DNA of 64,000 nucleotides from the NCBI GenBank assembly GCA_963745835.1, contig CAVUZH010000013.1, positions 640,001 to 704,000 of the forward strand, given 5' to 3'. The stretch's first letter is position 1. Each line of letters opens with the position of its first letter. This DNA comes from an uncultured delta proteobacterium. GTDB taxonomy: Bacteria > Desulfobacterota > Binatia > UBA9968. The notes under the pieces were generated by a model that was not told the DNA's origin, did not search any database, and saw only the letters and a list, made by a program, of their open reading frames with translations. Position numbers and translations under genes: made by a program. Shown one piece after another: positions 39,739 to 61,685 of the stretch.

Positions 39739-39964
39739 TCGGGTCGCCCATTAGCAGGCAGGTCACCGAAACAACCGCGGGCGAATGTGGTATAGGCCGG
39801 GCCGTGATCACAATGCTTATCGGACGAGAAGTGCTTGACAGAATTTTTTGAAAAAAGGGATATTACAAGCGGCGACTAAACTCTTGACGTGTTTGCTCAA
39901 TTTTTTGATCTTACGACAACAAACAACTGTCCTATGGAGAAGGGCAACTATCATAGGAGGTTTT

Positions 39965-40444
39965 ATGACATCGCAGGTTCGTACGGCTTTGTTATCCTTT
40001 ATCCTAACACTGAGTGGCATCCTGACCGTGACCGCTTACGCCGACGCCGATGGCGGCTGCTTTCAGGGAACCTACTTTGTCAGAGAGAGCAGCGGCACGC
40101 AGAGCCTATGGACGTTTTCACAAGATGGTACTTATCAAAGCGCCAGCTCGGCGGAAGTGGGCCGGAGTTTTGGTCACATACAGGGCGCCTGGAAAAAGAC
40201 CGGGGCTCGAGAACTGCGCTCGACAGGTTTGGCTTTTACTTTTAGTGGCGGCAACGGCGACGTAGGCGTTCCGCCGCTTCGGACCGCTCGGGTTGATGCC
40301 GTTATGTCATTCACAAATAAATGTGAGGAGGTGGAAGGAACCTTTGAGGTTCGCTTCTTTGGCCCGGACGCCGATCCCGTCTCGGAGCCCGGCGAGTTCG
40401 TCTTTTCCGACACCTTTACCGGGCGCCGTGTCACGGTTAATTAG
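39965..40444 (+). CDS. Secreted hypothetical protein (paralog of 32050-32538)
   Basis: AGGAGG RBS; GGCFQGTYFVRESSGTQSLWTFSQDG. Confidence 0.8.
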   Translation: MTSQVRTALLSFILTLSGILTVTAYADADGGCFQGTYFVRESSGTQSLWTFSQDGTYQSASSAEVGRSFGHIQGAWKKTGARELRSTGLAFTFSGGNGDVGVPPLRTARVDAVMSFTNKCEEVEGTFEVRFFGPDADPVSEPGEFVFSDTFTGRRVTVN

Positions 40445-40503
40445 TTTCGCTGCAAGTGCTAAGTTCTACGGCTCGCCACTGCTGCTTCACAAAGGTGTTA
40501 GTG

Positions 40504-40989
40504 ATGCTCGCGAAGCTCCGATTCTCAACCATACAGACCGGTCTCGTACTCTTCTGGGCGATCTGGCTGACCCTCGTAACCCTCACGAACTTCGCTGATG
40601 CGATGAGGCAGCTGGACGTGCTCCCCAGTGATTTCAAGCTCGCCTCTTACAATTTTGATCTTGTGAAGAAGACGGTCGGCGCTCATGGGATACCGACGAG
40701 CGTCGCGGGCGTGCTTTTCGCCGGAGTTATTTTGTGGGAGTTGCTCGGCAGCATCCTGTTCTGGCGTGCATGGCGAGTTATGCGGCGTCACGGGAACGGC
40801 GCGGCTCCAGAAGTCGCGCAGGCGTTTGCAGTCAGTCTCGCTCTATGGGCTGCCTTTCTGATTGCCACGGAGGCGACGGTGAACTACGAGACCGCCGCGA
40901 CGCACAAGACAACCCTGATCGCGCAACTTGCAAGCCTCCTCGTGGTTCGCGCCAGCGCTTCGCCCACGAAGTCTGAACAAGCGGACTAG
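40504..40989 (+). CDS. Hypothetical membrane protein
   Basis: Three to four hydrophobic segments. Confidence 0.7.
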   Translation: MLAKLRFSTIQTGLVLFWAIWLTLVTLTNFADAMRQLDVLPSDFKLASYNFDLVKKTVGAHGIPTSVAGVLFAGVILWELLGSILFWRAWRVMRRHGNGAAPEVAQAFAVSLALWAAFLIATEATVNYETAATHKTTLIAQLASLLVVRASASPTKSEQAD

Positions 40990-41045
40990 CTGACTTCAGA
41001 GGAGCGTGTGACTTTCCGACTACGCCCTTCTCTGAGGGTCGTAAC

Positions 41046-41779
41046 AGGGGACAGGCTACTTTTTTTTCTACTTCCTCATCTCGCTTAGAGCGGGTCGCCC
41101 CCGTGGACGCATCGTACTCTCAAGTCCAAATAGACCTGCAATCGTCGTCTGCCAGTCTGGTTCTCCAAAAGGTCTTTGACGATTCACTGACTGACGAATA
41201 GAAGCCAATTGGCTCGCTGATAACGGTTCGTCCACATGCGCCAGCCAGTCTGTCTCGACTTCCACAGGACAGGGATCGGCCAGCTCGTTCCGACAGCAAC
41301 TTGACCAAGGCCAATCATCTATCGACGCTGCCAAGCCTGATCTGATCGATTCTGCAACACGTAGCGCAGGACCATTAGCAAATGTTCGTCGCGCTGCACT
41401 GGAAAACTTTTAAACCGGCCCTGCCAAACATGCCCGCTGCTGCCGTAGTGCTTGTGATAACGCCGTACGTGACTGGTCAAGAGCCATTGCATGAATCGGC
41501 TCAAAGACTGGTGATGCGAAGCTTCAATCAGAAAGTGAAAGTGATTCGGCATCAGAGAGAAAGCAAACATCTTAACTGGGTGCCGCGCTTTTGCTAGCGC
41601 GAGGATGGAAAGAAAGGCTTGGTAATCTTGAGCTTTATGAAAGATAGTTGCGCGACCGTTCCCTCGGTTGATCACATGATAAACAAAACCAGCCTGTTGC
41701 GCACGCGGGATTCTCGGCATGGCAGGGCTTTATCATATAGGCGAACGTGATCACAAACGATGAAAGTAGCCTGTCCCCT
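41046..41779 (-). mobile_element. TIR-flanked HUH/Y1 tyrosine transposase element, copy 1 (frameshifted)
   Basis: Perfect 17-bp TIR AGGGGACAGGCTACTTT / AAAGTAGCCTGTCCCCT; YHVINRG, MPNHFH (HUH), WQGRFKS, RYVLQN. Confidence 0.93.
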
Positions 41780-41857
41780 TTAATCCCAGTGGAAGTGATG
41801 GAACCGGGCGCGCGGCTTTGTTTTCCTTCGGACGGGCCATCGTGCATCTTAACGGGC

Positions 41858-42868
41858 TTATTCCCGTTTCTCCCACCGTGCGATCAAGCCCAGCAAATCG
41901 CAGACGCGATTGGAGTATCCCCATTCATTGTCGTACCAACTGAGACACTTTAGATATCTACCGCCCGTAACGCTGGTAAATGCCGGGTCGAAAATAGAGG
42001 AGTGCGAATTCCCTATGACGTCGGATGATACGACGGGTGTTTCCATGAGTTGCAAAATGCCTTTCATCCGTTTCGACTCCGCCGCGGATTTTATCGCGCC
42101 ATGAACGTCCTCGGCACTAACGCGTTTCTGGAGCTCGACGAACAAGTCGACCACGGAGCCATCGGGCACCGGTACCCGCGCGGCGATTCCGTCCAGCCGT
42201 CCTTTCAATTCAGGCAAGACCTCGCCCACCGCCTTGGCCGCTCCGGTGGATGTCGGTATAATATTTTCCGCCGCGGCGCGGCTCCGCCGCCAATCCGAGT
42301 GCGGCACGTCGGCGAGGCGCTGATCGTTGGTGTAGGCGTGCACGGTATTGATGATTCCTTCCACGATACCGAAAGAATCGTGGAGCACCTTGGCCAGCGG
42401 CGCAAGACAATTGGTGGTGCAGCTCGCGTTAGAAATCATCCTGTGCTCGGGCTTGAGCCCGTCATCGTTGACGCCGATTACGACGGTATAATCGATCTCG
42501 TCCTTCGCCGGAACAGTCAGCACCACTCGCTTGGCTCCCGCATCCAGATGCTTGGCAAGTTGTTCCCTGCTAGTGAATATTCCCGTCGATTCGATGACGA
42601 CGTCGATGTCGATCTCGCGCCAGGGCAGTTTGAGCGGCTCCTTTTCACGAAGCATGCGCGTCCGACCGTGCGATGTCACCAGTTCATTGCCTTCGAGCCG
42701 CAGGGCGCCCTCAAAACGACCCATCACGGTGTCATAGTTGAGCAAGTATCGCAGCGCGTCGTGGTCGAAAAGGTCGTTGATCGCAACCAGTTCGGCGTCC
42801 GCCCGCTTATCGAGAATACGAAACACAGAACGGCCGATTCGACCGAATCCATTAATGGCAACTCTCAT
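41858..42868 (-). CDS. gap: Type I glyceraldehyde-3-phosphate dehydrogenase
   Basis: INGFGRIGR; SNASCTTNCL; WYDNEWGYSNR. Confidence 0.95.
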   Translation of the reverse strand: MRVAINGFGRIGRSVFRILDKRADAELVAINDLFDHDALRYLLNYDTVMGRFEGALRLEGNELVTSHGRTRMLREKEPLKLPWREIDIDVVIESTGIFTSREQLAKHLDAGAKRVVLTVPAKDEIDYTVVIGVNDDGLKPEHRMISNASCTTNCLAPLAKVLHDSFGIVEGIINTVHAYTNDQRLADVPHSDWRRSRAAAENIIPTSTGAAKAVGEVLPELKGRLDGIAARVPVPDGSVVDLFVELQKRVSAEDVHGAIKSAAESKRMKGILQLMETPVVSSDVIGNSHSSIFDPAFTSVTGGRYLKCLSWYDNEWGYSNRVCDLLGLIARWEKRE

Positions 42869-43884
42869 CGCCCACCTCCGATGGCATCGAGCCTGCCATA
42901 GTGCCGGACCACTTCGAGCACGCGGCACGCATGCCCCAGGCTCTCATACCAGGCCAGCACTTTGATTATTCTTTTTCCTGCTTTAATGGTGGCGAGCGAA
43001 TCGAAGAGCAAGGATTGCCGGCAACCGATGACATCCGAAGAAACAATCGGATCATCGGTCACGCCGATCAACGTCGGATGATCGGCAGCGGCGGCGCGCA
43101 TAGCTCCGTTCACTTGCTCGGCCGTGACGGTGCCAGCCTGCATGACGCAGTTAACATCGAGCAATGATCCGCGTTGGACCGGCACGTTAAGGGCGTAACC
43201 GCTCAACTTTCCCTCAAACTTGGGCAGAACAAGCTCCACCCATCGCGCGGACTCATTGTTGTTGGGGATGATATTCTCCGCCGCGGACCGGCTGCGCCGG
43301 AAATCTTTGTGTGCATAATTCTGCAGCGACTGATCGCTACTATAGGCGTGGACCGTCGTCATCGATGCGCAGTCGACTCCTAAGGCCTGATCCAGAGATT
43401 GCAATAAAAGCGCAAATGCATTGGTCGTCGCGGAACCGGCCGAAATCATTTTGTCCGCGGCGGCGGCGCTCCCTTCATTGATTCCCGGTACTACGATACG
43501 GTCGATTGATTCCGCCGGCAGCGACGCCAGAATGACCCGCGGGGCACCGGCGCGCAGATGGGCCTCCATGTCCCGACGACTCCGATATCTGCCCGTGGCA
43601 TCAACGACACAGTGGACGTTCAGAACATCCCATGGAACCTCGTCCGGCCGGGCAAGCTGGAGCATTCTTGTGCGGAACTTCTCGTTGATCAGGTAATTGT
43701 CCTGGAGCTCGCAGGGCGCCTCGTCCACGCCGTCGCTATTGAGCAGGTACTGAATGATTTCCGGTTTGCCGATATCGGCCACCGCGACGATTTCGATATC
43801 ATCTATTTCCCGCGCAAGGTGATACAGGTGCCGCCCAATTTGGCCCAATCCCATAATGCCGATTCGGATTTTACCATTACGCAT
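42865..43884 (-). CDS. GAPDH-like protein lacking the catalytic cysteine
   Basis: Full-length GAPDH alignment by eye, but SAGSATTNAF replaces SNASCTTNCL and WYESLGH replaces WYDNEWGY. Confidence 0.88.
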   Translation of the reverse strand: MRNGKIRIGIMGLGQIGRHLYHLAREIDDIEIVAVADIGKPEIIQYLLNSDGVDEAPCELQDNYLINEKFRTRMLQLARPDEVPWDVLNVHCVVDATGRYRSRRDMEAHLRAGAPRVILASLPAESIDRIVVPGINEGSAAAADKMISAGSATTNAFALLLQSLDQALGVDCASMTTVHAYSSDQSLQNYAHKDFRRSRSAAENIIPNNNESARWVELVLPKFEGKLSGYALNVPVQRGSLLDVNCVMQAGTVTAEQVNGAMRAAAADHPTLIGVTDDPIVSSDVIGCRQSLLFDSLATIKAGKRIIKVLAWYESLGHACRVLEVVRHYGRLDAIGGGR

Positions 43885-44021
43885 TTGGCCGCCTCCGTTT
43901 CCGCAAAATTAAGCGCTCGAAGTTGGCGTTTATCCATAGCCGAGAACTCTAACAACCGATCAACCAAAAGAAAATGCTTTTCTGAGGAAATCGTCAAACT
44001 GAACTGGAGGTGAAAAGGGAC

Positions 44022-44370
44022 AGGGGACAGGCTACTTTTTATCTACTTCCTCATTTCGCTTAGAGCGGGTCGGCCCCGTGGACGCATCGTACTCTCAAGT
44101 CCAAATAGACCTGCAATCGTCGTCTGCCAGTCTGGTTCTCCAAAAGGTCTTTGACGATTCACTGACTGACGAATTGAAGCCAATTTGATCGCTGATAACG
44201 GTTCGTCCATATGCGCCAGCCAGTCTGTCTCGACTTCCACAGGGCAGGGATCGGCCAGCTCGTTCCGACAGCAACTTGACCAAGGCCAATCATCTATCGA
44301 CGCTGCCAAGTCTGATCCGACTAGATTCTGCAACACATAGCGCAGGACCATGAGCAAATGTTCGTCGCGC
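44022..44370 (-). mobile_element. TIR-Y1 element, copy 2 (3' half only)
   Basis: Left TIR intact; homology stops at ...TTCGTCGCGC. Confidence 0.92.
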
Positions 44371-44440
44371 CTTTCAGCACGTTGCTAGACTTGGCCCTAA
44401 TGGTTCGAACGATTTCTCTTGTTTAGAAAATCCGGGTTAG

Positions 44441-44757
44441 CGATCTACCGCAGCCGCGGCAAGGGCTCTGGGCATGCTGCAATCGGGAGTAAGCCCGGTG
44501 CGAATGGAATTGCTTTCGGCTGCCGAACGTTGAGTGACCTGGTGTTGCACGATAGCCAATGGTTCGGGCAACAGACAGTAATTAGAACCGCCGATCTTTA
44601 CAGATCTTCGATCATTCAGGGATCGCTAAGTCCAAGTATCTACAGAGGCCCTCGTAACCGCGTGGGTTTTGCCTCCGTCACTCTTTCCTTGGACGAATAC
44701 CCGCTCAATCGGGAAAGCGATCGGACGCCCGTCGGTCCTGCAAAAAAGATCTGACCC
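44441..44757 (+). repeat. rlpA-tail repeat, copy D (about 145 nt of rlpA plus downstream DNA)
   Basis: GCCGCGGCAAGGGCTCTGGGCATG...GCCCGGTGCGAATGGAATTGCTTTCG; ends AAAAGATCTGACCC. Confidence 0.9.
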
Positions 44758-44831
44758 TATGGTATTTCTCACCGCATACCAATGGGCGAACTGGTGTCCA
44801 GTGGGGAGAAATTTGCCGCATCGAGGGCTTA

Positions 44832-45872
44832 TTACTTGGGCAACAGAATTGTTTTCAATCTTGCCACTAGTTCAGGTTGTAAATCAAAAATGCCGGAGAC
44901 TAATTTTTCAACCTCTTCCCCCGCGGAAGGGTCTACGGCAAGGTTAGATTTCTTAGCCTCCGCTAGAAATTCCGGATCGCGCATCGTCTTCATGAACGCT
45001 TCCCTCATGGTGGTTGTCCGATCGGCTGGAGTCCCGGGCGGAAAAGCGTACAGGCGTGTGATCGAACTGGTGGTTTCGATACCCACTTCGATCAGTTTTC
45101 TTGCTTCGTCCGTTTTAGCAAAGTCGTATGCCAAGGGCACATTGGGCAGATCCGGTAATGGCTGTTTCGTCACCTGCAAAAGAACCCTCACGTCGCCGCT
45201 TCTTAGCGCGCCTGTCCAAGTGGGCTTAATAGACTCCCATTGCCAACAACCCCCTGCCAACTCACCGGATTCAGCGCCTAACCGAATCTCGGCAGTCCCG
45301 GGGTACCCCGTCACTACCTGCATGGGTAGTCCCAAGGCTTCTTTGAGAATAAACGCTGAGTTTCCGGGCGCAGTGCCTGCTATGCCGCCTAATTTGACCG
45401 GCGTCTTTGAAGTCAACCATTTTTTCATGTCCGTAATACCGCTCGCCGTTGTTAAGGCGCATACAATATGATCTTTCCCGGGCACACCGAGCCATTGAAA
45501 TTCTTTGGCCTTAAAGGTAATGCCTTCTCTTCCCAGGAGTTGCCCTAAGACCAGATCTCCTATGAAGTTGCCGATGGTGAGGCCATCCGGTTTAGCAACA
45601 TCATAAACGTGCTTGGCAGCAATCAGCGTTCCCGCACCGGGCATGTTCTGTACGATGACACTGGGGTTGCCTGGAACGTGCTTTCCCAAATGTCGCGCAA
45701 TAACTCGCGAGTAGGTGTCGAATCCTCCGCCCGCTGAGGCGCCTACCACGATCCTTATGGTTGCCCCTTTGTAAAATGGCTCCTGAGAGTGGAGCCGCGC
45801 AGCCCCAAAAATGGTAACGCAGAAAGCGGCCATTGCTCCTAACGCAATGCCAAAACACTTTCGAATTGCCAT
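44832..45872 (-). CDS. Tripartite tricarboxylate transporter substrate-binding protein (TctC/Bug)
   Basis: GGGFDTYSR, NMPGAG, KPDGLT, PPGTP. Confidence 0.92.
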   Translation of the reverse strand: MAIRKCFGIALGAMAAFCVTIFGAARLHSQEPFYKGATIRIVVGASAGGGFDTYSRVIARHLGKHVPGNPSVIVQNMPGAGTLIAAKHVYDVAKPDGLTIGNFIGDLVLGQLLGREGITFKAKEFQWLGVPGKDHIVCALTTASGITDMKKWLTSKTPVKLGGIAGTAPGNSAFILKEALGLPMQVVTGYPGTAEIRLGAESGELAGGCWQWESIKPTWTGALRSGDVRVLLQVTKQPLPDLPNVPLAYDFAKTDEARKLIEVGIETTSSITRLYAFPPGTPADRTTTMREAFMKTMRDPEFLAEAKKSNLAVDPSAGEEVEKLVSGIFDLQPELVARLKTILLPK

Positions 45873-45891
45873 AAGAACGGTTCTCCTTGCG

Positions 45892-46605
45892 TTAAACCGC
45901 TTCCATTGCTAGCGCCAGCCCAAGCCGAAAAACTCGATAGAATTCCATCGATTCACGCGCTGCTTTCAGGATGCGTTCTTCATTTCCCTTGCCAAACTCT
46001 GTCAGAACCGGGAGAAACATTTCGCCGTGCTCCTCATCCGCCTCTGCGTGGGCCGCGAGATTGGGAATCTGTTCCCATTTAAGACCCATATCTTCAGCCC
46101 ATCGGATGCCTTCTCGCCGCGAGACTCCTCCGCCGGAATCCAGAAATAAACGATCATCGTTGGCCCACTCCGTAGCCATAAGAGCAGCGAGGCCCTCCAG
46201 CCAATGATGCTCGCGCGTTATCCAACCCCACGCATAGAGTGTCGCGCGCGTTGAAGGCAACGGTTCAACGTTGAGCGCTTGATCTGGGCTCAAACCCAGA
46301 GTTCGAGCTTGACGAACGATAAGCTCCATATGTCCGAAATCGGAGTATTTGTCCTGCACGATTTCGTCGTACTCGTGCGCGAGGATCTTCTGCTTCACTG
46401 ACATTTCCGGACAATTACCCGAGACAAACGCCCAACAATCACGACGATGCTTGATAAATACCCCGAGTTGAAGCAAAGAAATCTTCGCGCGTTCGGGAGT
46501 AAATTTTACTGAAAAGAAACGGTCGAATTCAGGGGTTTTCACTCCCTCTACAACAACCCGTCCAAATGCTTGTTTCCACTCATGTTCGGTCATGAAGCCT
46601 CCCAT
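45892..46605 (-). CDS. Heme-oxygenase-like (TenA/PqqC/CADD) iron redox enzyme
   Basis: HEYDE...GH and HAEADEEH putative metal ligands. Confidence 0.75.
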   Translation of the reverse strand: MGGFMTEHEWKQAFGRVVVEGVKTPEFDRFFSVKFTPERAKISLLQLGVFIKHRRDCWAFVSGNCPEMSVKQKILAHEYDEIVQDKYSDFGHMELIVRQARTLGLSPDQALNVEPLPSTRATLYAWGWITREHHWLEGLAALMATEWANDDRLFLDSGGGVSRREGIRWAEDMGLKWEQIPNLAAHAEADEEHGEMFLPVLTEFGKGNEERILKAARESMEFYRVFRLGLALAMEAV

Positions 46606-46656
46606 TCAAAAAGCCCATCCTTAATACGACTCTGTGCGCTGAGGTCTTTCCGGATA

Positions 46657-46995
46657 TCAGACCGGCCACCCATGTTCAGAGATGTCCACCCGATTGCCTT
46701 CAGGGTCCTCTATCCAGCTCTCCGCAATGGCCCCGTAGACGTTTGAGTTTGCGGTAGTACCGACGAACTCCTCGACGGCTTTGACGCTCGTCACTACAAA
46801 ACCAAAGTGATGGATGCCCCAGGGAAGGTTCGGCGCATTGATCAGGGCAACGTCAACGAAGCCATCGGACAGATAAATCGTTCCATTCGGACCACGTTCC
46901 TTTTCTTCCAGCTTGAATACACCTTTGTAATACTCGGCAGCTTTTTCGCGATCTTCAACGTTGATAGCGATATGGCGAATGCGTGGTTTACTCAT
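46657..46995 (-). CDS. VOC/glyoxalase family protein
   Basis: IRHIAI...YLSDG...GIHHFGF...DPEGNRVDIS. Confidence 0.88.
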   Translation of the reverse strand: MSKPRIRHIAINVEDREKAAEYYKGVFKLEEKERGPNGTIYLSDGFVDVALINAPNLPWGIHHFGFVVTSVKAVEEFVGTTANSNVYGAIAESWIEDPEGNRVDISEHGWPV

Positions 46996-47224
46996 AAGAA
47001 ATCCCCCCCTTTGAAAGACCCTTTTTCGCGTTGGACGCACCTTTCAATGGGACCTGTAACCCCTCTCACAATCGATGTCAAATAACTCGGCGGATAAAAC
47101 TAAACAGAAAAGTAACGGGTCAGAACAAGCAGGAAAAAGAGTCACTCATGAACAGCTTGTCAAATTCTCTTTAGATGCAACTCTCGAGCTCGGGCGAAGT
47201 TGTTACATTCAATCGGACGCCGAG

Positions 47225-47304
47225 TTCTTCCGTTCACTGCTTCGTTGGACCCCGCAGAATACCCGCTCAAATTGGGGAAGTGCTCGGACGCCGGGATTAC
47301 AACT
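47225..47304 (+). repeat. rlpA-downstream repeat, copy E (short)
   Basis: TCCGTTCACTGCTTCGTTG..CCGCAGAA.ACCCGCTCAAATTGGG matches 27449-27493. Confidence 0.85.
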
Positions 47305-47318
47305 GAGGCATGGTGTAA

Positions 47319-48053
47319 AGGGGCCAGGCTACTTTTTTATCTACTTCCTCATTTCGCTTCGAGCGGGTCGGCCCCGTGGACGCATCGTACTCTCAAGTCC
47401 AAATAAACCTGCAATCGTCGTCTGCCAGCCTGGTTCTCCAAAAGGTCTTTGACGATTCACTGACTGACGAATAGAAGCCAATCGGCTCGCTGATAACGGT
47501 TCGTCCACATTGCGCTAGCCAGTCTGTCTCGACTTCCACAGGGCAGGGATCGGCCAGCTCGTTCCGACAACAACTTGACCAAGGCCAATCACCTATCGAC
47601 GCTGCCAAGCCTGATCTGGCTGGATTCTGCAACACGTAGCGCAGGACCATTAGCAAATGTTCGTCGCGCTGCACTGGAAAACTTTTAACCGGCCTGCCAA
47701 ACATGCCCGCTGCTGCCGTAATGCTTGTGATAACGCCGTACGTACTGGTCAATAGCCATTGCATGAATCGGCTCAGAGACTGGTGATGCGAAGCTTCAAT
47801 CAGAAAGTGAAAGTTCGATTCGGCATCAGAGAGAAAGCAAACATCTTAACTGGGTGCCGCGCTTTTGCTAGCGCGACGATGGAAAGAAAGGCTTGGTAAT
47901 CTTGAGCTTTATGAAAGATAGTTGCGCGACCGTTCCCTCGGTTGATCACATGATAAACAAAACCAGCCTGTTGCGCACGCGGGATTCTCGGCATGGCAGG
48001 GCTTTATCATATAGGCGAACGTGATCACAAACGATGAAAGTAGCCTGTCCCCT
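47319..48053 (-). mobile_element. TIR-Y1 element, copy 3 (frameshifted)
   Basis: Both TIRs present (one mismatch on the left); ORF pieces 47800-47994 and 47393-47764. Confidence 0.93.
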
Positions 48054-48200
48054 TTAATCCGCCAGCCTTTTGAATTCGCCGCTGCCGCATTGACAATTTA
48101 AGCCCGCGCGCGATAGCGTTGAGCAACGCCGGCCGTCGAGATAAGCATCGGCGATTGCCGGAAATGTTTTTGCTCACAAATGGAGAACCCGGAGGGACTC

Positions 48201-48905
48201 ATGCGAGTTCTGCTCTTGCTTAACGGTCCTCGCGAGCGTTACGTCGGCGGCGCCGATACCGCACGCCAGATCAAGTGGCGCGACTACTGCTCGCCCGCCA
48301 CCGAACTGGAGATCGGTTATCTGCCGAGCGTGGGAGAAGGCCGCGACGGCGCCAAGGTGTACGGATTTGGAACAAGAGAGGCGCTGACTCTCGGGCCGTT
48401 ATATCCGGATCGTTGCGCAATGGCGGAGCGGGATGGATTCGATGCGGTTATCATCCACTGCTTCATAGATCCCGGCTTGCGCGCGGCGCGCGACCGGGTG
48501 GGCATCCCGGTTGTCGGGCCGGGAGAGGTGACGCTCAGCGCCGGCGCGAGTCTAAGCGGTAAGATCGGCATGGTGACACCGAGCAATGAGACCGTGGATT
48601 CGCACTGGGATCAAGTAAGGGGTCTTGGCCTTGAGAAGCGATTTGTCGGAATCGAAGCGATCGAAGGTCCTCTCCTGCCATTTCCGCAACAAGACCCGCG
48701 AGCGATGACAGAGGCTCTGGTTGCCGCCGGCCGAAAGCTGATCGAGAAAGGCGCCGAACTGATTTGCCCTTCAGGGCTCGCCTATATTCCGATTCGGGTT
48801 TCCGCCGGTGAAGTCTCGCGCAAGCTGGGGATTCCGGTTCTCGATCCGGCCCTCCTTTCGGTTAAAACAGCGGAGATGCTGGTTTCAGCTCTCGAGTATC
48901 CTTGA
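48201..48905 (+). CDS. Asp/Glu/hydantoin racemase family protein
   Basis: DAVIIHCFIDPG, IPVVGPGE, IPVLDP. Confidence 0.85.
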   Translation: MRVLLLLNGPRERYVGGADTARQIKWRDYCSPATELEIGYLPSVGEGRDGAKVYGFGTREALTLGPLYPDRCAMAERDGFDAVIIHCFIDPGLRAARDRVGIPVVGPGEVTLSAGASLSGKIGMVTPSNETVDSHWDQVRGLGLEKRFVGIEAIEGPLLPFPQQDPRAMTEALVAAGRKLIEKGAELICPSGLAYIPIRVSAGEVSRKLGIPVLDPALLSVKTAEMLVSALEYP

Positions 48906-48916
48906 GAATCGAAATC

Positions 48917-49079
48917 TCACCACGAAGGCCGCCAAGAGCACGAAATTTACTCCGGAGTCTGTGAACTGGGTGAAAAGCGATTCGCAGATTCCACCGCCGG
49001 GGCACCGAGGCCGCAGAGCAAAGAGTTTTCAATCAAAGATACTTCGAAACTCAGCGAACTTTGCGTCTCTGCGGTGAAA
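48917..49079. repeat. CACCACGAA/CACCGCAGAG-type palindromic repeat
   Basis: CACCGCCGGGGCACCGAGGCCGCAGAG ... CTTTGCGTCTCTGCGGTGAA between convergent genes. Confidence 0.6.
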
Positions 49080-49134
49080 TACTTCTTTGGTTGCGGCTGC
49101 TCTGTGCACTTGGTCAACGAACCCGCCCTGTGAA

Positions 49135-50085
49135 CTATTTCAGCGCCTTCAAAAATGAATAATCGAGGATCTCATTTACCGTCAAGGGTTTGTTTGTTTC
49201 GCCGCGGCCGTAAATCATTTCCAGGTACTTGTTCAAACCGCTCTCGGCCATAATCATATCGTCCAGCAATACGCCGCTAATATCGTCGTAGGCCTCTTCG
49301 GCGACACCCTGATCGACAGCGAAACTCTGCATGATATAAGCAATCACGGCCTTGCGATCCTGGCGAATCGACTTAATCGCCTCGAGCATGGCTCTGAGCG
49401 TGTTTCTCAGGCGATCGGGATGCTTTTGAATTTTTTCTCTGGTCGTGACGAGACCATTAAAAGGAGACGCCTCGATCACGTCTCCGCTTCGCTTGAGAAT
49501 CTTGAAACCCTTGCGCGCCATTACCCCGGTGAACGGCGGGCTGAGAACCGCGCCTTCGACAAGCCCTCGCTCGAGCGGCAGCATGTTCAAGGCGGTGCTT
49601 CCCGTTTGGATCCAGGTAACCTTCTTGGGATCGGCGCCGCTTTTTTCCAGCATAACGGCTCCGTTGAAATGGCTTTCAGAGCCGATTCTCGAAACCGAGA
49701 TTTTTTTGCCTTCGAGCGACTTGGGGTTCGGTAGCGCGCTGAGCAAAGAAAAGAGCGGGGCCCGGTAAAGCACTGCGACGGCTTTGACTGGCATTCCCTT
49801 GCCGATCCCTTCGATGGCCGTGCCGATGCCGGTGATGAAATCCAGCTCGCCCGCCACCAGCCCGGCCAACTGAAGATTGCTCCTGATTTGAATGATTTCG
49901 ACTTCCAGGCCGTACTTGTCGAAGAACTTCTTGTCTTTGGCATAGTAGAAGGGCATCAGGACGACGTTTCTCGTCGATAGTCCAAGCCGGATCTTTTCAG
50001 CACCCCACGCCGCCTCGCTCCAGGGCAATCCGACACATATCGTAATAAGCAGCCAACTATTCCAACTTCGCAGTGCTGACAGCAT
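49135..50085 (-). CDS. ABC substrate-binding protein (NMT1-like)
   Basis: PFYYAKDKKFFDKYGLEV; LEGKKISVSRIGS. Confidence 0.9.
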   Translation of the reverse strand: MLSALRSWNSWLLITICVGLPWSEAAWGAEKIRLGLSTRNVVLMPFYYAKDKKFFDKYGLEVEIIQIRSNLQLAGLVAGELDFITGIGTAIEGIGKGMPVKAVAVLYRAPLFSLLSALPNPKSLEGKKISVSRIGSESHFNGAVMLEKSGADPKKVTWIQTGSTALNMLPLERGLVEGAVLSPPFTGVMARKGFKILKRSGDVIEASPFNGLVTTREKIQKHPDRLRNTLRAMLEAIKSIRQDRKAVIAYIMQSFAVDQGVAEEAYDDISGVLLDDMIMAESGLNKYLEMIYGRGETNKPLTVNEILDYSFLKALK

Positions 50086-50125
50086 AAATCCTTCTCCAAC
50101 TGTTTACGGAGGCCTCGGATACGTT

Positions 50126-50155
50126 CTTTGCCGGCTAAAACTTACGCCGGCAAAG
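50126..50155. terminator. Intergenic hairpin
   Basis: CTTTGCCGGC...GCCGGCAAAG perfect 10-bp stem. Confidence 0.5.
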
Positions 50156-50176
50156 CGCCGTTATCGACCGCATCTC

Positions 50177-50530
50177 TCAAGTTGGCCACATATCGAGAAC
50201 GACGTCGATCCGGTTGCCCTGGGGATCGATAATATAGTTTTCCGCATGCCGGCCTGGCGCCGTCTCCCCTTGATGAACGGGAGTGATGGCGTTGATGGGA
50301 TCGAGTGACGGTACCAGAAAGCCAAAGTGCCAGATGCCATTCGGCTGATTGTCTTTGGCTGCGTTGATGGCGATATGCATGAAGCCGTCGGTCATGTAAA
50401 TGCTGCTCTTATTACCGCGCGGGTTTCTCCTGACGACCTTCAAGCCGAAGGCTTTCTCGTAAAACGAGCTGAGCTGGTCGGGGTCCTCCGAACGGATGGC
50501 GATGTGTCTGACTTGCATTCTATCCGGCAT
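50177..50530 (-). CDS. VOC/glyoxalase family protein
   Basis: VRHIAI...YMTDG...GIWHFGF...DPQGNRID. Confidence 0.88.
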   Translation of the reverse strand: MPDRMQVRHIAIRSEDPDQLSSFYEKAFGLKVVRRNPRGNKSSIYMTDGFMHIAINAAKDNQPNGIWHFGFLVPSLDPINAITPVHQGETAPGRHAENYIIDPQGNRIDVVLDMWPT

Positions 50531-50696
50531 AAATTCTCTCCTTTCGGTTGGTTGTTCCCAGCGGACTTGACAACAAAACCATTCATTTGTCAATGAACAA
50601 GCAGCCGTGAAGATTCGGTTCACCGACGCCAAGTGCTGGATCTGTGGAGGGAGAAGAGCCGCGAGGGCCATTAATGTCGACGACCAGGAGGTGTAA

Positions 50697-51429
50697 AGGG
50701 GACAGGCTACTTTTTATCTACTTCCTCATTTCGCTTAGAGCGGGTCGGCCCCGTGGACGCATCGTACTCTCAAGTCCAAATAGACCTGCAATCGTCGTCT
50801 GCCAGTCTGGTTCTCCAAAAGGTCTTTGACGATTCACTGACTGACGAATTGAAGCCATTGGCTCGCCGATAACAATTCGTCTACATGCGCCAGCCAATCT
50901 GTCTCGACTTCCACAGGACAGGGATCGGCCAGCTCATTCCGACAGCAACTTGATCAAGTCCAATCATCCATCGACGCTGCCAAGCCTGATCTGACTGGAT
51001 TCTGCAACACGTAGCGCAGGACCATGAGCAAATGTTCGTCGCGCTGCACTGGAAAACTTTTAAACCGGCCCTGCCAAACATGCCCGCTGCTGCCGTAATG
51101 CTTGTGATAACGCCGTACGTGACTGGTCAAGAGCCATTGCATGAATCGGCTCAGAGACTGGTGATGCGAAGCTTCAATCAGAAAGTGAAAGTGATTCGGC
51201 ATCAGAGAGAAAGCAAACATCTTAACTGGGTGCCGCGCTTTTGCTAGCGCGAGGATGGAAAGAAAGGCTTGGTAATCTTGAGCTTTATGAAAGATAGTTG
51301 CGCGACCGTTCCCTCGGTTGATCACATGATAAACAAAACCAGCCTGTTGCGCACGCGGGATTCTCGGCATGGCAGGGCTTTATCATATAGGCGAACGTGA
51401 TCACAAACGATGAAAGTAGCCTGTCCCCT
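50697..51429 (-). mobile_element. TIR-Y1 element, copy 4 (premature stop)
   Basis: Perfect TIRs; 138-aa ORF keeps HUH and YVLQNP, then TGG to TGA. Confidence 0.93.
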
Positions 51430-51596
51430 TGTGCGGACCTATTCCGACACCGATGGACTGAAAACAGGGACGCGTAGATCAGGGGTCGCAATCCTGCAAG
51501 TTGAAAAATGGGAATAAGAAAATTCTCACAGGAACGTGTGTGTCCTCTTGACCTGCCTTCTAATGGCGACCCCAAGTTTCTCGACCGACCTTTCCT

Positions 51597-52649
51597 TTAT
51601 CTTCCCAGCAGCTTTTTCATACGCTCGATGATATCCGGTGGTTGTGTAACCACTTCCTTGGCTATGGCCTGTAGCGGCTCGCCTTCGGTCGGATCTAATT
51701 CAAGTTCTTGCTTTTCGGCAGTGGCCTTAACCTCGGGGTCGGCGATGACCTTGGCAAAGGCTTGGCGCAGGACTTTTAACGTTTCGGGAGAGATAGCCGG
51801 TGGCGCGACAAATGGCCGGCCGATATCGCCGGCGGCCAAAACCACGGTGGCCACGCGTCGACCCGACTCCGGAGTGTTGTACTGATTCATAAGCTCAAAA
51901 ATGGTCGGAACGTCGGGCAGCCTTGGATCTTTGTCTTTTCCCGATTGAATGAGGACCCGGACAAACCCTCTCTTGCGCCACGAAGCGAAAGGTTCCCTGG
52001 CAAAAAATGAATTCAGACTGAAGCCGCGGCACTGAATCTCGCCTCGTTCAATGGCAAGGTCAATGTCGTTCCCGCCCTGATAACCGGTAATTATATTGAA
52101 CTTGGTGCCGAGCGTTTGTTCCATGAGCATGGGGAAATAATAGCCGGTTGACGCGGTTCCGGTTGCCCCGCACTTGGGCGGCACTGAGGCTTTACGCATA
52201 TCCTCGATGCTCTTGAAGGGAGCATCCGTTCGGACGAAAAGGATCTCGTTCGTGCGCGTCGGACTGCCGATGTAGCCAAACTTCGCCCAATCGAACTGCA
52301 CTTCTTTTAGGCCAACGAGCTGATCGAAATAGAGGGCCGGGGCGATAACTCCCAGAGTCAAGCCGTCCGGCTTAGCCACCCCGTAGATATGGTTCGCGGC
52401 GATCAGCGAAGTCGCTCCCGGCATGTTCTGCACGATCATGGTCGGAGAGCCGGGAATATATTTGGGCATATGGCGTGCAATCAGACGGGCCCAAAGATCG
52501 GTGGCGGTTGCGGCACCGTAGCCTACCACGAGTCTGATGTTCTTGCCGGCATAGAAGTTTTCGGCCTGTGAATAACTGGAACGCGGCAGAAGGAGAAACC
52601 AACCCAACAGAAAGAACAGAGAGGCTCCGAATGAAACATGTTTTTTCAT
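51597..52649 (-). CDS. TctC/Bug substrate-binding protein
   Basis: NMPGA, KPDGLT, GYQGG, RPFVAPP. Confidence 0.92.
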   Translation of the reverse strand: MKKHVSFGASLFFLLGWFLLLPRSSYSQAENFYAGKNIRLVVGYGAATATDLWARLIARHMPKYIPGSPTMIVQNMPGATSLIAANHIYGVAKPDGLTLGVIAPALYFDQLVGLKEVQFDWAKFGYIGSPTRTNEILFVRTDAPFKSIEDMRKASVPPKCGATGTASTGYYFPMLMEQTLGTKFNIITGYQGGNDIDLAIERGEIQCRGFSLNSFFAREPFASWRKRGFVRVLIQSGKDKDPRLPDVPTIFELMNQYNTPESGRRVATVVLAAGDIGRPFVAPPAISPETLKVLRQAFAKVIADPEVKATAEKQELELDPTEGEPLQAIAKEVVTQPPDIIERMKKLLGR

Positions 52650-52679
52650 GGTCTACTCCCTGCCCATGAGAGCATTGGG

Positions 52680-54042
52680 TTACGCTTTGCCAGCCAAAAG
52701 CTGGCAAAGCGGTGCGACGGAATCGAGAGTTTCGAGCCTTTCGATCATCGCAGCAGCTTCAAGCACGGCTTCTTCCTTCAGTGCTCTGCGCGCGCAATTG
52801 ATAAGCTTGTCCCTGAGCTCTTCGGGAGTCAGGGGCCATTTCTTCGCGGTCCCTTTCGCATAGTCCACTCGACCGGAAATCGTCCGGCCATCCTTCAGGC
52901 GAATCGTGACCTTGGACGGGTGGCTCCCCTCCGCGTCTTCCTCTAATTCCGGGTCCACTTCCATGTGGACCTTCTCGGCCAAACCGAAGAACCGATTTAT
53001 CGCGGATCGCCTCCTCAGTGAAAGTATGGAGCGTCACTTTCCCGTCGATCACCGCTCTTGCGAGAATATAACCCATGCTAAATTTACTTTGGATCGCGGT
53101 CTCCGGAATTTTGTCGAGGACCTTAGTGTAAGCGTGCGGCGTCACGCCCACGCGAATGTCGTCAATCGTGCCCGGAGCAAGGCCTTGCGCGCGCATTTCA
53201 AGAACCGCATCGACGGCAGAGTGAATTAGGCCGCCACAGGGATACGCCTTGAAGCCAATTTCTCTCTCCACCAGTTCAAAAGATTTCCCCAGGCTTTCGA
53301 TCACTGCCAAATCGTAGGGAGAACCCCTTGAGTAACTCTCGTGAAAACCCCTGGCTCCCTCAAGGATCGAACGATTGGCGGTAAAACCATTGCTTGCCAG
53401 TTTCGCCGCCAATACACCGTTCCGCGCGGCGAGGCCCGCATGAAGCGGCTTGGTCATCGTCCCATAGTTCCAGATGAAACCGCTCGCCATCGAGGCAGCG
53501 ATCCCCAGTGTCGTTCGCACCGCCTCGACCTGGAGGCCGAGCAATTTGGCGCAGGCAACGGCCGCTCCCAGCGCCCCAAGGGTCCCCGCGCTGTGCCAAC
53601 CTTCTTTGATTGAATGGTCCGGAATGGATAACACCAGCTTGGTCGTGACCTCAAAACCAACGACGTAGGCTTGCAAAAACTCCCGCCCGTTTCTTCCTAG
53701 TTTTTCTGCAAGCGCAAAGGTTGCCGCAGCCAAACAGGAAGTGGGTTGACCCATATAGGTGTAGTTATAATCGTAGTCCAACGCATGACCGGCGGTTCCG
53801 TTAACGAGCGCTGCCTGAGAACAAGACGTTTTGAACCCCTGTCCAAAAACGCTCGAATCTTTACTGGTGCTCTCCTCCCGCGCCATTTGCGCGCAAATCT
53901 TGGCGGCAGGCTCGATGCTGCCTGCCAACGTTACGGCCACAGAATCAAGAATAGCCTGCTTCACCAACTCTATGGCTTTTACCGGAAGGTCTTCATACGT
54001 GGTCTGAGCCACAAATTCGGCTACTTTCCTTGTGTAATCCAT
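52680..54042 (-). CDS. MmgE/PrpD family protein (frameshift near 52980)
   Basis: NGTAGHALDYD, GTMTKPLHAG, KAYPCG, KFS; C-terminus in ORF 52680-52982. Confidence 0.88.
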
Positions 54043-54485
54043 TGCTCTCCCTTATTGCCCCTTGTTCGCTGTCCGTGAAACCCGGGGCAGCTCATTCTGA
54101 CCCGTAGCTCCTTCTCCGCTAGACCAAGATCGATCATCCTTCGGTCTCGTCTACTTACAGAGCCACGTATTCGGTGAGAATATGGCACCATCCCGGTCGA
54201 CCCCTCAGATGATTCAGGTGACGAGGGCGGCATTTCAGGCCGTTGCGAGCCTGAATGAACAGGCCACTGACTCCAAGAGCCACACCCTCGTCAAGAATTT
54301 CTTTACAGGATTCTTTTAGATCCTGCTACCTGCTAAATTCCCATGGTAGACCCCTTTGTGTTTCCCCAACTAGCTAGCTAACTCCATACTTGACCCCTTG
54401 ATCCCAGTTTCTGATTGAGATGACTGTTGTTCTCCCAACTGCTTGGCCGGTGCCCGAAAACCTGATTAATCTGCTGTTCGAAGTC

Positions 54486-55121
54486 TTAGAGCGCGCGGCC
54501 GGGCACAACGATACAACCGCTCGTGGCATCGCCGTAGCATTTATAATTTCCGAGTGCGAACTGATACGCAGTGAAAGCACAAAGCGCTGCATCGATTTGG
54601 TCGATGTTGGTAAACTTGCTGGTATCGACGTTCGCGTAACTCAGAATGTAACGACGAAATCGTCGCTTTTGCTTAGCCGATACGATCTTTCCCGCAAGGG
54701 CACACGCAATGGCTTGCGGAAACGTCTCAAAACAGATTGGTTGGGCTGTGCGCTGGGACTTGTTATCGAATAGCACATGGCTGGTTTCAAGATCTGCGTA
54801 CAGCGCGGCGCCGTTTATCATCCAGCCGAAATGATCCTTCGGGTGTTTTTCCGCCGCTTCACGGCTCGGCGTGGAAAAACACCAAATTCTCTCCGCCATC
54901 AGTTCACGCTCGGCAGAACGCGCGCGACCCGTATCACTCCAGCGGCACGGAGCATCCACTGCGATAAGGCGCGCGTCAATTTGTCGGCACCAATCGGCGA
55001 CTTCGGTCACGTTGCACGAGGCAATCTGATTCAAATAGGCACCGGCCCGGAGCGCGACGGCATGAAATCCCTTGGCCCTTCCGCCTACATCAATTCCGGC
55101 GACAATGATCTGTGACGACAT
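54486..55121 (-). CDS. DUF429 family predicted nuclease (RNase H-like)
   Basis: VAGIDVG, IAVDAP, R.AERE, ETFP, DQIDAALCA. Confidence 0.8.
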   Translation of the reverse strand: MSSQIIVAGIDVGGRAKGFHAVALRAGAYLNQIASCNVTEVADWCRQIDARLIAVDAPCRWSDTGRARSAERELMAERIWCFSTPSREAAEKHPKDHFGWMINGAALYADLETSHVLFDNKSQRTAQPICFETFPQAIACALAGKIVSAKQKRRFRRYILSYANVDTSKFTNIDQIDAALCAFTAYQFALGNYKCYGDATSGCIVVPGRAL

Positions 55122-55136
55122 CCAAGCATCCGTGTT

Positions 55137-55237
55137 GATTGGTGAGCCCTCAGTTCGGCAACGGCCGCGTCCATGAGTTTGTCGGCGGTCGTCGGGGCGG
55201 TGACGATCTGGGTTTCCAGCGCGTCCGCCAAGGCCAT
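55137..55237 (-). pseudogene. 3' remnant of a type I R-M hsdS gene
   Basis: MALADALETQIVTAPTTADKLMDAAVAEL resembles the HsdS C-terminal conserved helix. Confidence 0.6.
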
Positions 55238-55307
55238 CGTTTGTCTACTTTCGTCACGGTCCGGCTTGGTCGAAGATGGAAGAGTCGCCATCATTAGAGA
55301 AGGAGAA

Positions 55308-56035
55308 AGGGAACAGACTACTTATTATCTACTTCCTCATCTCGCTTAGAGCGGGTCGGCCCCGTGGACGCATCGTACTCTCAAGTCCAAATCGATCTGC
55401 AATCGTCGTCTGCCAGCCTGGTTATCCAAAAGGTCTTTGACGATTCACTGACTGTCGAACTGAAGCCATTGGTTCGCTGATAACGGTTCGTCCACATGCG
55501 CCAGCCAGTCTGTCTCGACTTCCACAGGACGGGATCGGCCAGCTCGTTACGACAGCAACTTGACCAAGGCCAATCATCTATCGACGCTGCCAAGCCTGCT
55601 CTGACTGGATTTCTGCAATACGTAGCGCAGGACCATCAGCAAATGTTCGTCGCGCTGCACTGGAAAACTTTTAAACCGGCCCTGCCAAACATGCCCGCTG
55701 CTGCCGTAATGCCTGTGATAACGCCGTACGTGACTCATCAGCCATTGCATGAATCGGCTCAGAGACTGGTGATGCGAAGCTTCGATCAGAAGTGAAAGCG
55801 ATTCGGCATCAGAGACAAAGCAAGCATCTTAACTGGGTGCCGCGCTTTTGCTGCGCGAGAATGAAACGAAAGGCTTGGTAATCTTGAGCTTTATGAAAGA
55901 TAGTTGCGCGCCCGTTCCCTCAGTTGATCACATGATAAACAAGACCACCCTATTCCGCACGCGGGATTCTCGGCATGGCAGGGCTTTATCATATAGGCGA
56001 ACGTGATCACAAACGATGAAAGTAGCCTGTCCCCT
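55308..56035 (-). mobile_element. TIR-Y1 element, copy 5 (most degenerate)
   Basis: Left TIR decayed (AGGGAACAGACTACTT), right TIR intact; many indels. Confidence 0.92.
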
Positions 56036-56072
56036 TAATCCTTGTCAACACTACTCTAGCTCGGTAGTCACT

Positions 56073-57230
56073 CTACGAATGAGAAGGTCCTTGCTCTGTG
56101 TACTCTACGATAAATTTGGCTCTTTCATATAGTTCATCGAACGTGAGAATGTCGATTCCGTGTATGGACTTCCGAAAACGCTGCAACGTCTCTCGCTTGC
56201 TACGGCTGTTTAGTTGCGCTAGAACCCCGATCACAATAATACCTTTTGGTTGAACAGTATAAACGCCCCGCCTCTCAAAATTATCACGGTTATCTGGGTG
56301 TTCTGATCCCTGCTTATCCCAGGTAGACATATTCGTCTGGATCTGTGATAACGCGTCTGTTAATTGTTTCGATAAGCTCCACGCTCCACTCCTGATTTCG
56401 CCAGTTCCTTGTAGTAAAGGTGTCGCGGGCGTTTTTATCTCTACGAGTACGGTAAAATTTATTTCTCCGGATGTTGAAGTCAAATAGTCTCCCTTTTGAC
56501 CTCCTCGCCGATCCACTCGCATTCCTCCATAGTGTGGTTGTGACTGTTCTTGTTTTAGGATTTGGTAATTGAGGCCATAGCCGAAAATCCATTTGTTCTG
56601 CTCAAAGAACTTTTGCCAATAACCTTCCCTCTCGGAATTTAATTTCAACTCTTTTTTAAATTGTTCGAGTATTTCCCTTCTCTGAAGGAGTTGATTGATA
56701 TCTTGTTCCGAGAGCCTAATGCCGGTTTTAGATGAAAGCTGCTTTATAATTCTGACAATACTTTCTGCATCCCGATCACCCAAAGCAGTCACAATTTCAG
56801 CATCTCCCTGCGACACCAAGGAGAATGCAGTTTTCGGTACTTCGATCTCGCGTAAAGATTGTAAAAATGAAATCAGCTTCCAAAAATTCTCGTGGCACTC
56901 TTCCAAACTGACATTTGCTTTTAGGACGTAGGTGTTTTTCTCGATCCGTAAAGATTCGTCAATAATTTTCTCGTTTTTATCCCGAATTGAAACACTCAGA
57001 CGCGGGGAAAATTTCTCAGCCTTCTTGATAAGGCAGACCTTGCAGATATAACTTACGCGTGGCCTCTCATCCAGAACAAATTGCGTGATTAGCCGCTTCT
57101 GCTTGCGGTGGTAAAAATAATAAAAATTATCACCGGAAGGCGATGAGTTTATTTGGAGGTCACGAAAATCGTCCTCGCCTATGACAAACTCCTCGCTCTT
57201 ATTCCAGCTCATAAAACCGCTGATTCGCAT
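56073..57230 (-). CDS. sduA: Shedu anti-phage nuclease (DUF4263)
   Basis: E.YWQKFFEQNKWIFG, D...VEIKTP, DALSQ, IIVIG, ILTFDEL. Confidence 0.85.
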   Translation of the reverse strand: MRISGFMSWNKSEEFVIGEDDFRDLQINSSPSGDNFYYFYHRKQKRLITQFVLDERPRVSYICKVCLIKKAEKFSPRLSVSIRDKNEKIIDESLRIEKNTYVLKANVSLEECHENFWKLISFLQSLREIEVPKTAFSLVSQGDAEIVTALGDRDAESIVRIIKQLSSKTGIRLSEQDINQLLQRREILEQFKKELKLNSEREGYWQKFFEQNKWIFGYGLNYQILKQEQSQPHYGGMRVDRRGGQKGDYLTSTSGEINFTVLVEIKTPATPLLQGTGEIRSGAWSLSKQLTDALSQIQTNMSTWDKQGSEHPDNRDNFERRGVYTVQPKGIIVIGVLAQLNSRSKRETLQRFRKSIHGIDILTFDELYERAKFIVEYTEQGPSHS

Positions 57231-57349
57231 GAATTCCTAAATACCATTGATTTTGTAATCGCAATAGATCGGAGCTGTCCCTTGATGTTCGTTTCTCTCT
57301 GTCTTTCAACCTCAAGTCAGTCGATGCATCGTGAGCTTATCCCCATATC

Positions 57350-58078: not shown

Positions 58079-58114
58079 CGTTATTACCGTTTTTCAGCTA
58101 AGGTTCACATCGTA

Positions 58115-59736: not shown

Positions 59737-59811
59737 GATGTACGACAGGTTCCGAGAGGCAGTTAACTCCTGAACTCTAGCTTCACCAACTTTGGTTTCT
59801 TGACGTTCAGT

Positions 59812-61552: not shown

Positions 61553-61570
61553 CGGGAAATGACCTTTTTA

Positions 61571-61656
61571 CACCACCGAGAACACAGAGAGCACAGAGAA
61601 AAGCCTTTTGTTGTTTCTCTGAATTGACTCTGTGTCCTCTGTGCGCTCTGTGGTGA
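61571..61656. repeat. CACAGAG/CTCTGTG palindromic repeat
   Basis: CACCACCGAGAACACAGAGAGCACAGAG ... CTCTGTGTCCTCTGTGCGCTCTGTGGTG. Confidence 0.75.
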
Positions 61657-61685
61657 ACAAGAAATTAACACCTGCGAGCAATTGG

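Follow-up and report, generated by a model that had tools for sequence, protein, structure and literature searches.

Decayed, same-strand copies of a TIRYT element as probable joints between gene modules in a plastic island of an uncultured Binatia bacterium

RAYT-type Y1 transposase genes are under debate as 'domesticated', single-copy genes. One class of them, recognised by GGGGWSAS-type terminal repeats, was named TIRYT/TIRtron by Di Nocera et al. (2013, PMC3733652), and Quentin et al. (2018, PMC6006769) treat it as the same as both their subclass 2.1 and the RAYT group 1 of Bertels et al. (2017, PMC5581495). According to that 2018 survey, formal evidence of mobility is lacking for the group framed by inverted repeats, and the genes are described in print as low-copy and diverged within a genome. 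Here we analyse a stretch of 64,000 nucleotides (the window) from a soil bacterium, an uncultured delta proteobacterium of the Binatia (assembly GCA_963745835.1, contig CAVUZH010000013.1) in which five copies of one element, all in the same orientation, alternate with unrelated gene modules. The repeats are decayed copies of a TIRYT/TIRtron element (RAYT group 1, TnpA-Y1 subclass 2.1), so the element type is already known; what is new is that its copies keep to rows of one orientation within a plastic island, a pattern seen in several related genomes and at no fewer than two loci, together with the comparative signs of its mobility. The copies are probably joints at which gene modules are swapped. 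An earlier reading of the window alone (the original prediction) had proposed that element-plus-cargo units were added serially by an HUH enzyme; of this, the rows confined to one locus and a gap gene pair flanked by the element stand, whereas joints inside the element, mosaic copies and solitary intact relatives speak against it.

The window is C13:640001–704000 of the source assembly, G000 (7.28 Mb, 25 contigs), and contig C13 is 919 kb long. Genomes compared are denoted G, contigs C, loci L and proteins P, and the element copies are c1 to c5 from left to right. The 17-mer AGGGGACAGGCTACTTT, which the original prediction took to be the terminal repeat, has 9 matches at up to 3 mismatches in the window, where 0.01 is expected by chance and none of 100 shuffles reaches 9. 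They mark both ends of the four full copies and, in the half copy c2, its left end; the remaining matches in the genome each have 3 mismatches and are isolated. The 17-mer is thus present at nine ends, but the true inverted repeat is ~27 bp, reaches ~11 nt further outward on each side and reads GGGGAT(G/T)TAAAGGGGACAGGCTACTTT when many copies are compared. The element is ~750 bp long, and its five copies, four full and one half, lie between 41.0 and 56.0 kb of the window. Their alignment (up to 733 nt, all on the plus strand) starts at 41046, 44022 (bases 1–348 only), 47319, 50697 and 55308, giving start-to-start distances of 2975, 3298, 3377 and 4611 bp. No target duplication is visible at the copies. 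The transposase gene is on the minus strand and, from three-frame reading and comparison with an intact 217-residue relative, is broken differently in each copy. In the positions, orientation and lesions of the copies and in the lack of a duplication the original prediction was correct. The copies, with the strand of the transposase gene, are:

41035–41787, minus strand: copy c1, full length; transposase with one frameshift; left end base-precise against uninterrupted sites
44006–44370, minus strand: copy c2, element bases 1–348 only, that is, the 3' half of the gene; ends where repeat R2 starts
47306–48060, minus strand: copy c3, full length; at least 2 frame changes; right 244 nt identical to c1
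50686–51430, minus strand: copy c4, one stop and one frameshift; right end without the outer ~8–10 nt and joined to remnant R3
55298–56041, minus strand: copy c5, the most decayed, with many stops and frameshifts; 94% identical to c4

Against the reference copy c4 the identities are 94–97%. All five transposase genes are dead, so that any present activity would require an enzyme in trans.

Several lines of evidence place the element in its class. The transposase gene matches Y1_Tnp (PF01797) in Pfam with 63 bits against a cut-off of 23, and the NCBIfam model REP_Tyr_transpos (NF047646, cut-off 80) is reached by both the intact relative P0003 (84 bits) and the c4 reading frame (80.6 bits). The sole PDB match of P0003 is the E. 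coli TnpA-REP structure, 4ER8. The H-F-H and Y-V-L-Q-N-P motifs are legible in c1 and c4 as PNHFHFL and RYVLQNP; the HuH motif together with the class-2 tyrosine motif Y---NP is one of the marks of TIRYT/TIRtron. Both ends read GGGGACAG(GCTAC...), which fits the published terminal-repeat motif GGGGWSAS or GGGG[AT][CG]A[CG]. The class is also defined by the absence of REP-like hairpins, and here single-strand hairpins at both ends and on both strands are no better than in shuffles (z-scores 0.33–0.96) and no known RNA family (Rfam) is found in the window. Members of the class further have an extension at the C terminus that resembles a helix-turn-helix; the two 217-residue proteins P0003 and P0004 carry ~75 residues beyond the core, with no Pfam match there in the pieces scanned. 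The locus therefore shares with the published TIRYT genes a RAYT-type Y1 HUH gene framed by terminal inverted repeats instead of REP hairpins, the GGGGWSAS motif in the repeat and a protein of ~217 residues extending C-terminally past a 121-position core. It differs from them in having five copies of high identity, miniature derivatives, an uninterrupted site for comparison and co-oriented rows with cargo.

Four other systems resemble the locus in part. With IS200/IS605 elements (IS608 and ISDra2, which move by single-strand 'peel and paste') it has in common a Y1 HUH enzyme, the lack of target duplication and the placement of every copy on one, G-rich strand. Those elements have subterminal hairpins without inverted repeats, a Y---Q tyrosine motif and normally dispersed copies, whereas here there are 27-bp inverted repeats, hairpins at chance level and Y---NP. 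Membership of IS200/IS605 is ruled out by these features and by the score of 20–22 bits for the IS200 model NF033573, well below its threshold of 55. The resemblance to IS26 translocatable units and pseudo-compound arrays is one of architecture only, in that direct copies alternate with unrelated cargo without duplications; IS26 has a DDE enzyme with a demonstrated targeted conservative reaction, unlike the Y1 HUH gene here, which is dead in all copies. REPtrons, REPINs and BIME clusters (RAYT groups 2 and 3) have a related enzyme and short, end-derived derivatives that multiply, but theirs are hairpins on the 100-nt scale, spread genome-wide beside a single domesticated gene, and not 750-bp gene-bearing copies in one island. 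Integron cassettes and the tandem accretion of islands at the 3' end of a gene are likewise serial, same-direction modules at one chromosomal site, and the R2 repeats described below, derived from the 3' end of an RlpA-like gene, resemble repeated attachment sites. An integron is nevertheless ruled out, since the island open reading frames (ORFs) scanned include no integrase family, nothing resembling a folded attC site was found there and the repeats are 750-bp gene-bearing elements.

In the whole 7.28-Mb assembly, blastn finds these five copies only, all within 15 kb, so that the genome-wide count bears out a single locus with one orientation. Ten other Y1 genes occur in G000, eight of them flanked by inverted repeats starting GGG(G)... 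One of these families numbers four copies, spread over three contigs; two of them sit side by side in the same orientation on C5 (C5:162438–165134, L024), ~1 kb apart, and one of these two is internally deleted. This second TIRYT family has ends GGGACGCTGTTGACTA... and an intact 334-residue gene.

Among 61 genomes searched, 18 including G000 have matches to the element; these comprise 17 of the 36 others in the same family and none of the 24 that represent the order's two other families. (Two genomes flagged as unpublished, G012 and G018, are in this tally, and G018 contributes one row each to the tables of left-end contexts and of copy rows; no conclusion depends on them.) Wherever two or more matches fall on one long contig they are co-oriented: six copies or fragments in G006:C15, five in G005:C354, two in G001:C432 and five in G030:C7. 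These rows mix full, truncated and miniature copies. The six of G006:C15 are all on the plus strand and lie between the same backbone flanks as the G000 island. The row in G030, which belongs to another genus, adjoins backbone matching G000 C13:240–252 kb and is therefore at a different locus, which rules it out as an ortholog of the G000 island. A literature search that covered few subscription journals and neither the supplements nor the figures of PMC3733652 and PMC6006769, which may list copy numbers and grouped repeats, found no account of TIRYT copies set in co-oriented rows with cargo between them; the Figure 9 legend of PMC3733652 mentions 'grouped' terminal repeats.

The element appears to have been mobile formerly as a discrete unit bounded by its ends, and comparison of related sites shows this in part. 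At the left end of c1 the two uninterrupted sites, G005:C110 and G000 C22, read ...CTTCTCTG/C(T)ATCCTCC..., and the same place on C13 reads ...CTTCTCTG/AGGGTCGTAAC-AGGGGACAGG...; the left junction is thus base-precise and without duplication. Internal deletion derivatives provide a second line. One, with bases 1–75 joined to ~440–734, is found in three flank contexts (one in G006 and two in G005), and another, with 1–43 joined to ~457–734, in two contexts, to the right of the gap pair (G006, G004) and at another place in G005. That each joint recurs in different flanks indicates that the derivatives multiplied after the deletion. Further deletion joints are present in short-read contigs of soil and rhizosphere runs. 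The joints listed from such contigs are mostly deletion derivatives or an 11-bp insertion specific to c2; the best run contains 0.46 of the words, and uncovered parts and depths are not used as evidence. The locus and its relatives together provide comparative evidence that one TIRYT element moved, from the uninterrupted site, the miniature derivatives in several contexts and the multiple copies. As to the target, 5 of 10 left-end contexts in the genus are preceded by CTG and the others end in G; the intact metagenome relatives lack this pattern, and no preference is claimed.

The copies accumulate in one direction in an island where metabolic and binding-protein modules differ between close relatives. 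This hypervariable accessory island spans C13:672.6–707.3 kb, that is, from 32.6 kb of the window to past its end. G006:C15 is collinear with C13 up to ~32.6 kb of the window and again from C13:707260, and between these shared flanks there are 24.4 kb in G006 against 34.6 kb in G000, with largely different content. The G006 row holds TctC and haem-oxygenase-like genes, two IS110-family elements, glycosyltransferases, HSP20, the gap pair and a Na/sulfate symporter. In G000 the modules beside and between the copies, with the cargo as identified in the original prediction, are:

39768–41034, plus strand: two ORFs without a Pfam family, left of c1; the homologous segment continues past the c1 point in G005:C110 and G000 C22
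41858–43884, minus strand: gap pair (two GAPDH paralogues), between c1 and c2
44832–47040, minus strand: TctC-type binding protein, haem-oxygenase-like/TENA enzyme and VOC protein, bracketed by R2 copies r44 and r47
48180–50671, mixed strands: Asp/Glu racemase (plus), NMT1-type binding protein (minus) and VOC protein (minus), between c3 and c4
51597–55121, minus strand: TctC, MmgE/PrpD and DUF429, between c4 and c5
56073–57230, minus strand: Shedu (SduA_C) gene, starting ~30 bp past c5; first gene of a low-GC defence island

Turnover of modules in relatives had been expected exactly at the terminal repeats. Rows of the same element with different cargo and the base-precise left end of c1 agree with this, while several joints lie inside the element. 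The same cargo order without the elements was seen in no relative. The racemase module has a counterpart of 91% identity in G005:C455, whose racemase side is without the element, and in G005:C110 the left backbone is followed by the two-ORF module and then by other backbone, without any element. A second copy of the two-ORF module, ~93% identical to the G005 version and with a 1.2-kb insertion, is seen at G000 C22:278583–281179, and other pieces of the G006 row also match C22:282–283 kb, so that C22 may hold a second plastic island.

The gap pair is flanked by the element on both sides in G000, G001, G005 and G006, while the G004 contig reaches the right flank only; its left neighbours differ among genomes. 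Across these five genomes it is 97.9–100% identical, with the backbone at 85–94%, and the 114-nt spacer upstream of it is identical in all four comparisons. In third codon positions G000 and G006, the latter a single long contig, differ by 3.5% in gapA and 4.8% in gapB, by 13.2% in HSP20 and by about 9–20% in six backbone frames; a further backbone frame, at 4.5%, shows an excess of changes in the first position and is probably the wrong one. Between G000 and G001, a tract of 2,433 nt that stops near the left end of c2 has 5 differences; the 100 nt after it hold 21, an 11-nt insertion among them, and divergence is ~4% from there on.

The copies themselves carry marks of exchange. Over the last ~250 alignment columns c1, c3 and c4 have 0–3 differing positions, against 2–10 per 100 columns further left, and c5 differs from the others throughout. 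Such mosaic copies point to homologous recombination. Joints also lie within the element: c2 stops at 348, where another repeat begins; the copies left of the gap pair begin at ~445 (G005) or 504 (G006); and three G030 fragments begin at 577, behind a common unrelated segment of ~125 nt. This segment, TTGAAC-rich and ~125–150 nt long, is fused to the right-end fragment at G030:C7:471366–471662, 475426–475717 and 486084–486330, and a related piece is inserted at position 42 of an element copy in G005:C354:3089–3236; it may be another small mobile repeat. The other repeat at c2 is R2, the 3' end of an RlpA-like (DPBB) gene with ~120 nt downstream, of which five direct copies, 69–82% identical to each other, bracket modules and are found in the island only; G006 has two copies. 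The right end of c4 is joined to an IS110-family remnant, R3, which rules out this junction as an enzyme cut site. These repeats are:

27151–27518, plus strand: R2 master copy, at the intact RlpA-like (DPBB) gene 26704–27369
28921–29112 and 32633–33016, plus strand: further R2 copies
44432–44744, plus strand: R2 copy r44, duplicated RlpA-like 3' end with downstream sequence
47225–47294, plus strand: R2 copy r47, core only, just left of c3
51428–51572, plus strand: R3, what remains of the 3' terminus of an IS110-family element (~145 bp), fused to the right end of c4

Besides this remnant, IS110-family elements or remnants occur in or near TIRYT loci at G006:C15:35164–36948 and at G000 C5:168780–170346 and C15:11198–12988.

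We favour, as an even call, a reading in which a plastic island was first seeded with direct repeats by local Y1 transposition and its modules are shuffled by recombination at these repeats. In the first step, which is partly shown, a discrete mobile element would have inserted only nearby and without duplicating its target, which gave rise to same-strand copies and to miniature derivatives with internal deletions. In the second, the direct repeats would serve as joints for the gain, loss and reshuffling of accessory modules, the main route being homologous recombination between copies, both within the chromosome and with DNA of close relatives. Circles of one element and its cargo would be excised and could re-enter at any other copy, so that all copies stay co-oriented.

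A number of observations weigh against this reading. The right flank of c1 is not a continuation of the uninterrupted site, which implies the entry of more than c1 or a later rearrangement on the right side; with the junction one-sided, a simple insertion is not demonstrated. Intact relatives of the element from other lineages occur singly on contigs of up to 14.5 kb, and each of the 15 metagenome loci looked at, out of 80, has one copy. GAPDH is a slow-evolving gene. The pieces from G001, G004 and G005 are 2.7–7.8-kb contigs of metagenome-assembled genomes, in which mis-binning from a G000-like strain would inflate the identities of 99–100%, and only the gap-pair comparison with G006 (98% against 91–94%) is made within one long contig. 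The case for exchange at the copies would be a comparative one, and homologous recombination alone leaves the confinement of the copies to the island unexplained.

In a passenger model the element would have hopped a few kilobases at a time, its excised strand perhaps re-entering the same replication fork, with a strand bias as known for Y1 elements and no role in the turnover of cargo, in an island that was variable beforehand for other reasons. The top strands of IS200/IS605 elements lie on the lagging-strand template. The GC skew of the plus strand is negative over the whole of C13, which puts all five transposase genes on the G-rich strand, presumably the orientation that IS200/IS605 prefers. 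The island has other possible sources of variability in its IS110-family elements, the R2 repeats and the foreign low-GC defence block, and the GC content of the cargo (0.51–0.58 against 0.537 for the contig) is native-like and gives no sign of a distant origin. A mere passenger, however, should have matching flanks on its two sides, which c1 has not, and would not explain why the gap pair keeps copies on both sides in the differing neighbourhoods of the four genomes that have both sides on the contig. The two other Y1 genes on C13 are opposite in direction to the five copies, and symmetrical terminal repeats offer no obvious basis for a strand rule. We consider this explanation unlikely.

Capture driven by the HUH enzyme itself, as in the original prediction, appears quite unlikely to us. 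Here a Y1 enzyme acting in trans would cut the same end, on one strand, in two successive co-oriented copies and free a single-stranded circle of element and cargo, to be rejoined at the end of another copy, in a manner resembling IS26 translocatable units, oriT–oriT recombination by relaxases and integron cassettes. The co-oriented rows in G000, G006, G005, G001 and G030 are as expected, right-end fragments are preferentially kept in G006 and G030, and the near-identical tract shared by G000 and G001 ends within ~20 bp of the left end of c2. The base-precise but one-sided left end of c1 is what the edge of a composite insertion would give, a trans enzyme is conceivable given the ten other Y1 genes and the GGG(G)... 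inverted repeats of eight of them, and TnpA-REP is reported to cleave and rejoin its own sites. Against it, joints are also found inside the element (348, ~445, 504, 577) and one is at an IS110 remnant, the copies are mosaic, the unrelated direct repeat R2 brackets modules in the same island, the ends have no hairpin better than shuffles and no circle junction is demonstrated. A metagenome contig, L120 (1,060 bp), joins the left flank of c5 to the right flank of c1 through one element; it may be a permuted row, a circle junction or a short-read chimera assembled through the 733-bp repeat, and we treat it as a lead only. It is a doubtful extension that TIRYT ends are recombination sites for a Y1 HUH enzyme and that the rows of this family, one of whose members is source-labelled Candidatus Binatia, form an HUH-based cassette system; such a system could run on dead copies given one intact enzyme in the cell or population. 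The data neither establish nor exclude enzyme-driven gene capture, for which our expectation is low. If the enzyme does join units of element and cargo, single-strand HUH chemistry would open a new way of capturing genes; if it does not, the locus still illustrates clearly how decayed copies of a transposon can serve as portable homology and give a plastic island its structure.

That one or two real copies were multiplied, or modules misordered, by assembly through the repeat is very improbable: the assembly is of the metagenome type with an estimated contamination of 9.3%, and the read data are short-read contigs, but the copies differ by 3–7%, each with indels and flanks of its own, C13 measures 919 kb in an assembly of 25 contigs, contigs of run X1 (possibly the source sample) cross the c1-right, c3-left and c3-right junctions with 0–1 differences, and the independent 72.5-kb contig G006:C15 has the same kind of row between the same flanks.

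The 11 kb to the right of c5 hold Shedu, which the original prediction had placed next to the last copy, a YhcG nuclease, a split DUF6119 gene and a restriction system of type I. This defence block is found only in G000 among six genomes compared, being missing from the five relatives searched, and it alone is low in GC, with 0.43–0.50 against 0.51–0.58 in the cargo. It extends over 56073–64000 of the window and C13:704001–707322 (L023), with S, M and R genes of the restriction system and a YhcG-type PD-(D/E)XK nuclease; DUF6119 is present as two overlapping ORFs, 58115–59191 and 59179–59736.

Intact 217-residue proteins of 93–96% identity are found in metagenomes, one of them source-named Candidatus Binatia. 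The repeat GGGGACAGGCTAC frames relatives of 48–68% protein identity at 8 loci, labelled as Acidobacteriota-type (Pyrinomonadaceae, Blastocatellia), Tectomicrobia, deltaproteobacterial/Syntrophaceae, Planctomycetia and Myxococcaceae. Most of 80 genome loci show just two ends in a scan that covered extra terminal repeats only and left out extra element copies, with eight loci of more than one tblastn piece unchecked. Co-oriented rows as a general property of the family were not seen among these genome loci or the 15 metagenome loci. In the genome contigs of some distant relatives (L033, L036, L039, L040, L065 and L077) the terminal repeat is palindromic, GGGGACAGTCCCC, and clustered near the gene; in the terminal-repeat scan such clusters are those of L036, L040 and L065. 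The palindromic ends of some lineages link the inverted-repeat type to REP-like hairpins. Finally, at two metagenome loci with intact relatives, L113 and L114, the outer end motif is repeated in tandem just past the right end, for example TAATCCCTCCC and then TTAATCCC, which may be the footprint of repeated insertion at one site.

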